Source of the DNA: Alphaproteobacteria bacterium
GTDB taxonomy: Bacteria > Pseudomonadota > Alphaproteobacteria > Rickettsiales > SXRF01
Direction of reading: 5' to 3'
NCBI GenBank assembly: GCA_020049775.1
Contig: JAGVLO010000014.1
Location: 65,945-129,944 of the forward strand
Length of the DNA: 64,000 nt
Both the position numbers and the translations under genes were made by a program. The notes beneath the pieces are model-generated. The model had not been told where the DNA came from and searched no databases. It saw only the letters and a program-made list of their open reading frames with translations. This document shows, piece after piece, positions 18,381 through 21,572 of this stretch. The stretch's first letter is position 1; the number at the start of each line of letters is the position of its first letter.

Positions 18381-19592
18381 TCAGCCTACCGCTACTTGCC
18401 GGTCACGGCCACCGGCAAGTTGTAGCCCACCGCTGGCGCTTCTTCCCGGCTTCTGTTGATCCAGAACTTCGGCAAGACTGATAGATTTGATTCCGCGAGT
18501 TTGCTGCATTCGCACTGGCGCACCTGCTTCACTGAACGGCACCTCTGCACCACCGGGAATCGGGATGCCGCGGCTAATTTCTGGCACATAGTTCACTTCT
18601 GCATCCATACCGCGCATCTTGAAGTGGCCTGCGAGAAAGTCAGCTGTGTTGTTGGCAGAGAATTCCACGCAGAAATTGCTGGCAAGGCCACCGACATTCA
18701 CAATCACTTGTTCGCAGCCTTCTGATTTCAGCTTGGAAGCGATATCGCGGAATACCTCCCACGCAGGTGTCATTGTCTCGCCATCGTTTTCTACGCCGAT
18801 ACCATAACTGTCCACTTCCGAACGGTTGCCCTTGCGGATGACATGGAACTCGTTGCCCGAGGTAGCATCACGGTGATAAATGCTTTTTGACATCATGTCG
18901 CCATACAATTTGCGTGTCAGGCCTTCCGGCAGTTTCATGGCATCGGGATATTTGCAGCTTTCCGTTCCCTGAATGCAATGCTCGGTCCACAGCGTCTGCG
19001 TGCTTAGCTGCTTGCCATTGGCGCGCATTTCATCAAATGTCTGATCGAAATAGTTGTCCAACACCTTGCTAACACGGCCACGGTCTTTGGACGATGGCGC
19101 AAGTCCGCTGGTGGTTTCCACTTCTACCTTGCGGACACGCCCGTCTGCTTCTTTCACGCCAATGATGTTGCGGTCGCCGTCAAGCACAATTTCCTCGAAC
19201 GGAAAAAATGTGGGGGGATTGTCGAAGCCTTTAAAAAACAACACAGGCTGCTGTGCCGGTAGATATAAGTCCGCCTCATTTTCCGGAACATTCTGGCCTT
19301 CTGCCTTAAGCAGTTCCTTGTATTTTCCGATACGGTATTCCATCACACCCGGATGGTTAGCGGCAAAGCTGATATGGTTTGCCGGATGGTAATCCTGACC
19401 AATCACAAAAATGCCATTGCTGGTTTGGGAAATAATATCGCCCATCAACGACGCTACTTCTTCGCCCTTTGGCACATAGAGCGATCCGCCCTGAGCAGGT
19501 GAAAGCAGAGGATTCAAAAACCCGTTTTCCGGGTCGATGAACATATTAATGACTGCGGTTTTTTTGCCGTTGTGATTGATAAAACGGGTCAT
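18381..19592 (-). CDS. pncA: Nicotinamidase (isochorismatase-fold, PncA-like) with insertions; 403 aa
   Basis: Catalytic and metal motifs are all present: FIDPENGF (Asp), QDYHPANHISF (metal site), WTEHCIQGT, IRKGNRSEVDSYG (Lys) and GGLASNFCVEFSA (Cys). Confidence 0.75.
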   Translation of the reverse strand: MTRFINHNGKKTAVINMFIDPENGFLNPLLSPAQGGSLYVPKGEEVASLMGDIISQTSNGIFVIGQDYHPANHISFAANHPGVMEYRIGKYKELLKAEGQNVPENEADLYLPAQQPVLFFKGFDNPPTFFPFEEIVLDGDRNIIGVKEADGRVRKVEVETTSGLAPSSKDRGRVSKVLDNYFDQTFDEMRANGKQLSTQTLWTEHCIQGTESCKYPDAMKLPEGLTRKLYGDMMSKSIYHRDATSGNEFHVIRKGNRSEVDSYGIGVENDGETMTPAWEVFRDIASKLKSEGCEQVIVNVGGLASNFCVEFSANNTADFLAGHFKMRGMDAEVNYVPEISRGIPIPGGAEVPFSEAGAPVRMQQTRGIKSISLAEVLDQQKPGRSASGGLQLAGGRDRQVAVG

Positions 19593-19601
19593 ACTGTCTC
19601 C

Positions 19602-21572
19602 TTATTGAATAGCTTGTTTCTTTTCCTGTCCGCCTGCAAGTTGCAGCGTGCCGGAAGATGCCACACCCGGCGCGAATGGCGCATTGCCACCCTCAAAGCG
19701 TTCCGTGTATTCCGCCACACCCTGACGGTTGGAATGCGCAAGATGGCGCTGTTCGCACTCCATACGCTGGTCGAACAGTTTCTGGTCGAGGAATACGGGT
19801 ATATGTTCTACTTCTTGCGGCAGGCTGGCTTTCAGCGCTGCAATGTCGAGCGACAATGTACCCTGACCGCCTTTTTCTGCCGACTTAAAAGCTGCCAGCA
19901 GTTTTTTCTGTAGCACTTCATCACGCGGGCGGGCAACAATACGGGCGCCTTCGGGTAGCATGCCGAGTTGCGCCTTCACAGTTTTTGACATGGCCGCAAG
20001 GTCGGTAACCATTTTGCCGCTGCCGGGGAATGATTCCTTCTGCGCTGGCTCCTGATATACATACTCTCCTTTGGCATTAAACACCGGCACCAGCAGGTCC
20101 TTGCCTTCAGCGGAACTCACACCACTGCGGTTATCCTGAAAATTGCGCAGGTTTACGGCTTTACCTTCTGCATCCAGCCCCAGCGATTCATCATATAAAA
20201 CCACATGCGACAATTTACCGTCTTCGGTATAGAAACGGCGTGAATTGATACGACCCGGATTAGAAGATTTCACAGGAGCATGTGCCGCCACCTTCATCAC
20301 CGGTGTCATGGCTGCGCCTTCCGGCATTTCCTTATCGCCCAATACATCCATATATACGCTGGCAGCTTTGTACACCAGCCCAAGCGGTGCAACATGCGAG
20401 CCGGCAGTACCCACACCCCATGACTTGAAGAACGCACCAGCATCACGCATTTCTTTTGCAGAATGCTCATCGATTCCGTCAGCTGCGGAGCAGAATACAG
20501 TTGCCTTGTTCGCATATTTCAGCAACTCGGTATCATCCATTTTTTGCACATCTTCTTTGCTCAGGCCTTCGACAAAACCTTCCTCGGCAAAACGACGCAG
20601 GGCAATCTTGGAGTATTTTACAATATCGCCGGAATCGAAGCGCACACCATATTGCTTACCCAGCCCCTGTTCGCGCAATTCCTTGATAACCGTAATGGCG
20701 TTTTCCAGCCCCTGCAACGGATCATAGGTATCGACAAGCAGGATGCCGCTTTCCGGATGCGCCATCACAAAGCTGCGGAAGGCGTCTTTCTTGAGTGCCT
20801 GCTGCAATTCAGCGATGTTGCCTTCATCGCGCAGCCTTATCATTTCTGCCAGTGGCACTTCGCCCAGTTCTTTTTCGTGGGTCATCACCCATGCGTGATC
20901 CATAGTTCCTGCAAACACCTGTCCGAACTGCTTGGCGGCAGTGCCGGTAGAGCTGCTGGTATATCCGCCAAGCCCAAGGCTGCGCGAAGCTTCAATAGCT
21001 GCACCAAGGCTGGGGCCGCGGCGCAAGCCCTGTACGCTGGCAGCGCCTTTGGGCGATCCGTTTTCAAGTTCTTTTTCTACCACGTCGCTCTGGCGCGCCG
21101 CATGTGTTGCATAGCCGCTATGGCCATTCACCAAGCCCAGCGCAACAGATTCCAGCATTTTCACCTGCGCTATCGGCCCTTCCACGCGCAACACCGGCTC
21201 CTGCGGGAAAAATACTGCGCCTTCCGGTGCTGCATCTATCTTGAGGTTGAATTGCATGTTCTTAAGGTAATCGATGAATTCATCGGGAAATTGCTGCTTG
21301 CCGCTGGGAGTTTTCTGGGACCTGATGAAAGCAATATCCTGCTCACTGAAGCCATGCTCCTGCCAACGCTTAACAACGTCGATAACACCTTCAAGGCCAG
21401 CTGCCACCGTGTAGCCGCCGTTAAGCGCTTCCTTGCGGCCAAACATATAAAATACTGATGGGTTATCCGCTCGCCCTTCCAGCCAATAGGCATAGGCGGT
21501 GGTAAAATGATACTTGTCCGTCATCAGCGGAGTGGTTTGTTCGACACCGTAATTATCAGCTATAAATCCCAT
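19602..21572 (-). CDS. pncB: Nicotinate phosphoribosyltransferase family protein with a long C-terminal extension (656 aa)
   Basis: MTDKYHFTTAYAYW, AGTMDHAWV, LLVDTYD, GVRFDSGD and WGVGT are NAPRT-family landmarks. It is the first gene of the six-gene minus-strand operon. Confidence 0.8.
   Translation of the reverse strand: MGFIADNYGVEQTTPLMTDKYHFTTAYAYWLEGRADNPSVFYMFGRKEALNGGYTVAAGLEGVIDVVKRWQEHGFSEQDIAFIRSQKTPSGKQQFPDEFIDYLKNMQFNLKIDAAPEGAVFFPQEPVLRVEGPIAQVKMLESVALGLVNGHSGYATHAARQSDVVEKELENGSPKGAASVQGLRRGPSLGAAIEASRSLGLGGYTSSSTGTAAKQFGQVFAGTMDHAWVMTHEKELGEVPLAEMIRLRDEGNIAELQQALKKDAFRSFVMAHPESGILLVDTYDPLQGLENAITVIKELREQGLGKQYGVRFDSGDIVKYSKIALRRFAEEGFVEGLSKEDVQKMDDTELLKYANKATVFCSAADGIDEHSAKEMRDAGAFFKSWGVGTAGSHVAPLGLVYKAASVYMDVLGDKEMPEGAAMTPVMKVAAHAPVKSSNPGRINSRRFYTEDGKLSHVVLYDESLGLDAEGKAVNLRNFQDNRSGVSSAEGKDLLVPVFNAKGEYVYQEPAQKESFPGSGKMVTDLAAMSKTVKAQLGMLPEGARIVARPRDEVLQKKLLAAFKSAEKGGQGTLSLDIAALKASLPQEVEHIPVFLDQKLFDQRMECEQRHLAHSNRQGVAEYTERFEGGNAPFAPGVASSGTLQLAGGQEKKQAIQ

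Follow-up and report, generated by a model that had tools for sequence, protein, structure and literature searches.

The C-termini of two unrelated enzymes of nicotinamide adenine dinucleotide (NAD) salvage, a nicotinate phosphoribosyltransferase (NAPRT) and a PncA-like nicotinamidase, carry matching tails of 22 residues. Both enzymes are encoded by one operon in a 64,000-nucleotide stretch of an alphaproteobacterial genome (contig JAGVLO010000014.1, positions 65,945 to 129,944; assembly GCA_020049775.1; Rickettsiales, SXRF01), which is referred to here as the window. The tail is a real, conserved and previously undescribed shared C-terminal motif on NAD-salvage enzymes; a search of the literature on this operon, and on tails shared by NAD enzymes, gave no relevant result. 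In related operons, the tail occurs together with an uncharacterised protein of 86 amino acids (aa), s86, encoded directly after the nicotinamidase. We tentatively favour the reading that s86 recognises the tail as a docking handle, by which the enzymes of the pathway would be co-assembled or co-regulated.

The two tails in the window

The NAPRT and nicotinamidase tails share 11 of their 22 residues and reach an ungapped BLOSUM62 score of 58. As a background, we used the 945 other pairs of C-terminal 22-mers from 44 open reading frames (ORFs) of the window, which resulted in a mean score of -18.9 with a standard deviation of 9.8 and a maximum of 8. None of 200,000 shuffles reached 58, the highest shuffled score being 43. 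An earlier note on this DNA had described the matching tails, and its coordinates, sequences and 11 identities were all recovered. At the nucleotide level, 34 of 66 positions are identical (52%), and eight of the 11 identical residues are encoded by different codons. These codon differences and the low nucleotide identity argue for selection on the peptide rather than a recent DNA duplication, as had been proposed.

Weaker echoes of the tail had also been suggested near the ends of two other operon products, the fusion protein that contains the NAD synthetase (NadE) and a 519-aa Walker-A protein. These did not hold up, as the two proteins scored -3.5 and -0.7 bits, respectively, against a hidden Markov model (HMM) of the tail. 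In the comparison with orthologues, the NadE segment ILQKAGDWRKR corresponds to ILKGARDWRSR in locus L002, and the TQLGGT of the Walker-A protein corresponds to TQVGST in L034. Because both segments are conserved within their own families, they are features of those families and not of the tail motif. The end of a nearby isocitrate dehydrogenase (IDH) was considered as a further echo and was rejected at -3.4 bits; it, too, is a conserved feature of its own family.

Conservation of the tail across related operons

We collected 32 genomic and 17 metagenomic loci as well as the contigs that surround individual homologues; all of these relatives are metagenome-assembled. The nicotinamidase homologues, in which PF00857 is present, derive from uncultured Alphaproteobacteria labelled Micavibrio sp., 'Rickettsiales bacterium' and similar. 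A large group of the 120 nicotinamidase homologues has such a tail, here called type A, and 22 homologues were used for the tail alignment. Its core is (K)P-x5-G-x-[LIMF]-x3-G, often in the form KPGxx[ITV]xGxLxxxGG, and 8-15 variable residues follow. The equal length from PG to the stop codon, to which the earlier note had drawn attention, is thus correct for the window pair, but it does not extend to the orthologues. The core was found in about 18 related operons of uncultured Alphaproteobacteria, and its position was invariably the extreme C-terminus; an inspection of orthologous operons had been proposed as a check on the tail, and they have kept it.

In every genome with a type A tail on the nicotinamidase, the NAPRT is tailed too. 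The tailed NAPRTs belong to two families that are about 30% identical (those of L001, L002, L034 and L045 versus that of the window), and NAPRT orthologues in the fetched loci are 47-73% identical. The motif is kept on nicotinamidases 44-92% identical to that of the window and on genes that lie several kb apart. Additional carriers are a PRPP-synthetase-like protein and an IMPase-NMNAT in L018, another IMPase-NMNAT in L038, and a CinA/PncC protein in L035. When about 8,000 C-termini from the window and 57 loci were submitted to the tail HMM, the matches were operon enzymes only, and they included the NAPRT and CinA tails that had been left out of its training set. A tandem-duplicated 48-column profile of the tail, in which some rows had been brought to one register by trimming or padding, gave no hits with E <= 10 in a database of 5.8 billion proteins; the known carriers were also unreported, so this search had no power.

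No polypeptide bears more than one tail. NAPRT-nicotinamidase fusions (L021/L042, L022 and L044) have a single terminal tail and none at the junction. Likewise, free NMNAT is tailed (L018 and L038), whereas NMNAT fused to NadE, as in the window, is tail-less. The tail HMM found no tail on NadE in any type A operon.

In the AlphaFold2 (AF2) model of the window nicotinamidase, residues 1-383 have a predicted local distance difference test score (pLDDT) of 92.3, and tail residues 384-403 fall below 50 and have no secondary structure. The tail is thus predicted to be disordered and is probably a flexible extension that stays free; packing against five unrelated folds is unlikely.

Within a genome, the tails are more alike than between genomes. 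The NAPRT and nicotinamidase tails of one genome gave a mean local score of 37.1, compared with 30.9 +/- 2.3 in permuted pairs, and the observed value was reached in 118 of 20,000 permutations. The pair in L035 reads ETSGELAAAG and ETSGELSAAG, and the within-genome set of L018 comprises KPGAIISGNLSAD, KPGATITGEFSAD, KPGTDITGQLTA and KPGTDINGDMDI. Such likeness is what a common, genome-specific binding partner would produce. The presence of the tail on five or six unrelated enzyme families, together with this co-variation, bears out the earlier proposal of a shared C-terminal tag under peptide selection.

The s86 protein and its family

The earlier note had seen no partner for the tail in the window. 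It missed s86, whose ORF separates the nicotinamidase gene from the NadE gene and which is the best candidate partner; the start codon of s86 lies 1 nucleotide past the nicotinamidase stop codon. We ran an s86 HMM against six-frame translations of all loci. It detected s86 in all testable type A operons (the window, L001, L002, L017-20, L022, L033-35, L038, L044, L045 and L057-L059), and the gene table of the P0001 contig contains an 86-aa gene at the s86 position. None of the 38 loci that are truncated or have no type A tail gave a match. In L021/L042 the tail is present and the contig stops short of the s86 position.

A rough neighbour-joining tree of the nicotinamidase cores places the short nicotinamidases, without tail and s86, in the outgroup, whereas both features are present in the ingroup. 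Within the ingroup, a nested monophyletic clade (L003-L016, L023, L039 and others) lost s86 and simultaneously replaced the type A core by short, basic, Pro/Gly-rich ends. The ends found in s86-less loci (L003-L016, L023, L039 and L040) include RKFPGLAG, FPKAGGMK and KKTAxPGM, and here NadE is included among the enzymes that bear them. They may represent a second system of shared ends, looser than the first.

A full HMMER search of 1.84 billion cluster representatives yielded 449 relatives of s86. Most of them are stand-alone proteins of about 85 aa, some are tandem duplicates, and the fusion partners of others are TIR_2, Peptidase_C14 (caspase), ZZ-kinase-TPR, HEAT or PDZ proteins. The fusions to TIR_2 (P0271), caspase (P0250), ZZ-kinase-TPR (P0236/P0273) and HEAT (P0205) have the architectures of bacterial conflict or immunity systems. 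In five longer relatives (P0132, P0136, P0144, P0248 and P0256), an N-terminal (S/T)F(A/V)x(K/R)(F/L/V) motif occurs two or three times ahead of the s86 domain; this repeat could be a self-binding or polymerising strand.

No match to s86 was obtained in Pfam, NCBIfam, PADLOC or PHROGs. Its AF2 model (pLDDT 78.8) has the order strand-strand-strand-helix-strand-helix, and Foldseek returned no significant match in the PDB or BFVD; no sequence relative was found in the PDB either. The possibility that the tail copies or mimics a part of s86 was rejected, as the hhalign probability was 0.4% despite a few alignments to s86 residues 5-24 with z = 2-3.5.

Possible functions of the tail

The operon enzymes span the steps from nicotinamide to nicotinic acid, nicotinic acid mononucleotide, nicotinic acid adenine dinucleotide and NAD, which constitute the Preiss-Handler salvage route. 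In the docking reading, each separately translated enzyme of this route would have the tail appended as a disordered linear motif, and s86, encoded in the same operon, would bind the tail physically. The PRPP synthetase, nicotinamidase, NAPRT, CinA and NMNAT would then be tethered together via the tail, or else jointly regulated. Assembly would probably take place near or with the tail-less NAD synthetase, and the outcome, which might include substrate channelling, would be a tag-and-adaptor metabolon. The adaptor-like architectures of the s86 family (alone, in tandem or fused) are consistent with such a role.

Several points weigh against this reading. The co-occurrence of tail and s86 corresponds to about two evolutionary events, a joint gain and a joint loss, and could be a coincidence; with so few events, the link is suggestive and not proven. 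In the s86-less sister clade, NAPRT, nicotinamidase and NadE still have basic, Pro/Gly-rich ends of a loosely similar kind, and s86 may therefore not be needed for ends to be shared. Scaffolding would not be possible for an s86 that is monomeric and has only one binding site. Additionally, NadE has been exchanged between lineages (32-71% identity) while the tail persists, which argues against a fixed docking surface on NadE. The carrier survey covered the window and the loci, and carriers or partners may also exist outside the operon.

It is rather unlikely that the tail instead binds another partner (the NAD synthetase, one of the partner enzymes, or the product of a gene outside the operon) or serves as a trans-acting regulatory arm, with s86 having an unrelated role in NAD metabolism. 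The loss of the tail upon enzyme-enzyme or NadE fusion fits tethering between enzymes, and the similar short basic ends on three enzymes of the s86-less clade point in the same direction. However, NAPRT and NadE have been replaced by distant homologues (about 30-39% identity) in many tailed operons in which s86 and the core persist, and the type A core disappears exactly where s86 does.

Adaptor-assisted degradation is an unlikely explanation. Here, the tail would mark the free enzymes for coordinated proteolysis by ClpXP or Lon, and s86 would play the part that SspB has for the ssrA tag, with the adaptor on the proximal core and the protease on the distal part. A disordered C-terminal peptide with a co-occurring small protein from the same operon suits this scheme, as does the basic-hydrophobic distal part of the window clade, (D/E)(K/R)xxA(V/I)(G/Q), which recalls the MuA-type ClpX motif RRKKAI. 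C-degrons normally need conserved terminal residues, but those of the tail vary widely (AIQ, AVG, QQL, RKR, TRR, WSI, PKL and others), and the conserved core lies 10-15 residues from the end. The exemption of NadE would be unexplained, and the fusion partners of the s86 family do not point to protease delivery.

Export or compartment targeting, which had been raised as a function of the tag, is weakly supported at best, and we consider it very doubtful. The tail would direct the enzymes to a type IV or type I secretion system (T4SS/T1SS) or to an encapsulin or bacterial microcompartment (BMC) shell, with s86 as chaperone or adaptor. We scanned the window ORFs at 3.0-36.4 kb and 41.8-45.7 kb, and the surroundings (+/-10 kb) of six annotated operons, for shell, secretion and E1, E2 or JAB genes. 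Neither shell nor secretion genes turned up, nor any usher or T4SS gene, in agreement with the observation already made that neither shell nor protease nor E1/E2-like genes are visible in the window. An unstructured C-terminal peptide on several cargo-like proteins does resemble encapsulin cargo-loading peptides and T4SS signals, small chaperone genes often adjoin effector genes, and a eukaryote-like XPC-binding/ubiquilin-domain protein in the window hints at host association. Against this, NadE, which finishes the pathway, is never tagged; the NAD pathway needs ATP, phosphoribosyl pyrophosphate (PRPP) and glutamine and is therefore cytoplasmic; and every carrier found sits in the one operon.

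That the tails have no specific function, as leftover linkers or as sequence spread between neighbours by gene conversion, is highly improbable: the carrier genes are adjacent and the tails short and of low complexity, but the codon usage and nucleotide identity given above disagree with it, and the motif persists over diverged nicotinamidases, two distant NAPRT families and genes several kb apart. The proposal of a ubiquitin-like processing or conjugation site, with cleavage after LxGG and conjugation of the exposed Gly-Gly as in ISG15 or the cGAS-like enzymes of cyclic-oligonucleotide-based anti-phage signalling systems (CBASS), is hardly credible, even though both window tails read LQLAGG followed by eight residues and thereby resemble ubiquitin-like precursors with short C-terminal extensions, because orthologues have other residues in place of the second Gly and often of the first (LSAQRQ, FSADRA, LAAAGT, LEADGP and LRVAGL), the residues past GG are themselves conserved within the clade, a disordered linker on an isochorismatase-fold enzyme rather than a beta-grasp domain precedes the motif, and the scanned ORFs and annotated neighbourhoods contain no E1, E2 or JAB gene.

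Should s86 indeed dock on the tail, this operon would be one of few natural examples in which a shared peptide tag and its own adaptor organise a soluble pathway of primary metabolism, a design that synthetic biologists have engineered with SH3 or PDZ ligands. It would provide a portable 15-residue tag and receptor for metabolon building, and a first function for an unannotated family of several hundred clusters. It would also suggest a route to efficient NAD scavenging in predatory or host-dependent Alphaproteobacteria. That s86 domains are also fused to TIR and caspase effectors suggests a possible connection of NAD salvage with NAD-depleting defence, which can be tested. In a bolder version, which we regard as rather unlikely, the tail and s86 would form a natural, modular tag-adaptor system joining every free NAD-salvage enzyme into one assembly, and s86 would found a widespread, undescribed adaptor domain (the 449 clusters) that is also present on NAD-consuming TIR effectors and on caspases, so that one recruitment module could serve both the re-synthesis of NAD and immunity by NAD depletion.

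The operon and other features of the window

The operon lies on the minus strand in the order NAPRT, nicotinamidase, s86, the NMNAT/CN-hydrolase/NAD-synthetase fusion, a B12-binding/radical-SAM protein and the 519-aa Walker-A protein. Table 1 summarizes these features and others of the window.

Table 1. Features of the operon and its surroundings, in coordinates of the window.
Feature	Position	Strand	Evidence or remark
NAPRT (nicotinate phosphoribosyltransferase), 656 aa, tail carrier, operon gene 1	19602..21572	-	Pfam NAPRTase_N, 1.7e-25
NAPRT tail, PGVASSGTLQLAGGQEKKQAIQ and stop	19605..19670	-	Tail HMM 22.4 bits, residues 632-655 of 656
Nicotinamidase, PncA-like, isochorismatase fold with insertions, 403 aa, tail carrier	18381..19592	-	NCBIfam PRK11609, 1.5e-13
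Nicotinamidase tail, PGRSASGGLQLAGGRDRQVAVG and stop	18384..18449	-	Tail HMM 25.1 bits, residues 378-402 of 403
s86, 86 aa, uncharacterised family, candidate tail receptor or adaptor	18119..18379	-	Co-occurrence with the tail
NMNAT/CN-hydrolase/NAD-synthetase (NadE) fusion, 1222 aa, final pathway steps, tail-less	14445..18113	-	Pfam and NCBIfam; best tail HMM score -3.5 bits
B12-binding/radical-SAM protein	13041..14435	-	Between NadE and the 519-aa gene
519-aa Walker-A (GSMGSGKS) protein, non-carrier, conserved accessory of the extended operon	11476..13035	-	Tail HMM -0.7 bits
Small ORF, about 50 aa	about 11334..11495	-	Overlaps the 3' end of the 519-aa Walker-A gene
489-aa protein with XPC-binding and ubiquilin-1-like/STI1 domains	3053..4522	-	3.5e-22 and 8.6e-19; Pro/Gly/Ser-rich end
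IDH, 443 aa	24573..25904	+	Modest Pfam Iso_dh match (1.5e-21); syntenic in the sister contig
1246-aa protein with several Xre-type helix-turn-helix domains	27342..31082	-	Syntenic in the sister contig
Probable integrated island	31471..45864		Adjoins tRNA-Gln
Island HsdM, type I restriction-modification	34787..36424		Pfam
Island HsdS/HsdR, type I restriction-modification	36421..41716		Read from position alone
Island integrase	41766..42848		
Island integrase	44407..45663		
tRNA-Gln	45790..45864		

The 519-aa Walker-A protein had no family match. Its orthologues, 48-62% identical, are located downstream of NadE in L033, L034, L035 and L045, and genes of the same size occupy its position in the P0001 contig (519 aa) and L058 (517 aa). 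The Walker-A gene and the ORF of about 50 aa are conserved together downstream of NadE in L033, L034, L035 and L058, often with a protein of about 750 aa and a short-chain dehydrogenase/reductase (SDR) or epimerase. At the end of the tail-bearing operon of L035, and in this locus only, an Amidoligase_2 (PF12224) protein of about 996 aa was found (19343..21185).

The insertion of the B12/radical-SAM gene between NadE and the 519-aa gene occurs in this genome only. We considered this gene as a modifier of the tail, similar to those of ribosomally synthesised and post-translationally modified peptides (RiPPs), and rejected it, since neither the 92%-identical sister contig nor any other operon has it.

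The eukaryote-type XPC-binding/ubiquilin protein is unusual in a bacterium and hints at an association with a eukaryotic host. In addition to the features listed in Table 1, the island contains a calcineurin-like phosphoesterase/STAND NTPase with a match to the PADLOC candidate PDC-S60 (5.8e-105).

Comparison with known systems

The tail, with s86 as its putative receptor, would work like known tag-and-receptor systems, among them encapsulin peptides, docking domains of non-ribosomal peptide synthetases (NRPS) and SspB/ssrA, but it lacks features that define each of them. Substrates of T4SS and T1SS would be expected to come with a cognate apparatus and to have the signal on every exported protein; no apparatus genes were found near the examined operons, and NadE is untagged. 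SspB/ssrA is similar in that a small adaptor reads the proximal part of a disordered C-terminal tag on many substrates. It differs in its link to a protease, in its conserved terminal residues and in the range of its carriers, which here are limited to one operon. Degrons of the ssrA/LAA or MuA type have a conserved extreme C-terminus, whereas the last three residues of the tail vary and the distance from core to stop ranges from 8 to 15 residues.

Family 1 encapsulin cargo-loading peptides are also conserved C-terminal peptides after a flexible linker, are found on several unrelated cargo enzymes per genome and vary between lineages. The tail shares this location, as it occupies the extreme C-terminus and is predicted to be disordered. 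However, no HK97-fold/Linocin_M18 shell gene was matched with Pfam in the scanned window ORFs or within 10 kb of the six operons, and the peptide is not on all of the enzymes that would be packaged together, since NadE is without it in every type A operon. The encapsulin cargo consensus is of the LxIGSL(K/R) type; the tail core differs from it, and the candidate partner here is an 86-aa protein.

Effector-associated domains (EADs) have been proposed as coupling adaptors of bacterial conflict systems (Kaur et al. 2020, PMC7159879). Like EADs, the s86 family consists of a small non-enzymatic domain that occurs alone or fused to TIR, caspase or kinase-TPR proteins. Unlike them, each NAD operon has one s86 and no second copy for a homotypic pair, and the enzymes bear a 22-aa peptide unrelated to s86. 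In a comparison made through Pfam models alone, s86 and the s86 regions of the fusions had no Pfam-A match (E <= 0.01-0.1).

In the cohesin-dockerin pairs of the cellulosome, a common appended module plugs many different enzymes into one partner, as is proposed here. Dockerins, however, are folded domains of about 70 residues on secreted enzymes, whereas the tail is a cytoplasmic linear motif of about 15 residues.

The docking domains of NRPS and polyketide synthases (PKS) pair a small N-terminal beta-hairpin domain with the short C-terminal peptide of the upstream subunit. Compared with these, s86 is free-standing and not the N-terminus of the next enzyme, the pathway belongs to primary metabolism, and no sequence or fold match was found. 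The two systems would nevertheless be alike in that a small alpha/beta domain captures a C-terminal peptide of about 20 residues that has no structure of its own, joining successive enzymes of one pathway, and in that the peptide becomes dispensable once the proteins are fused.

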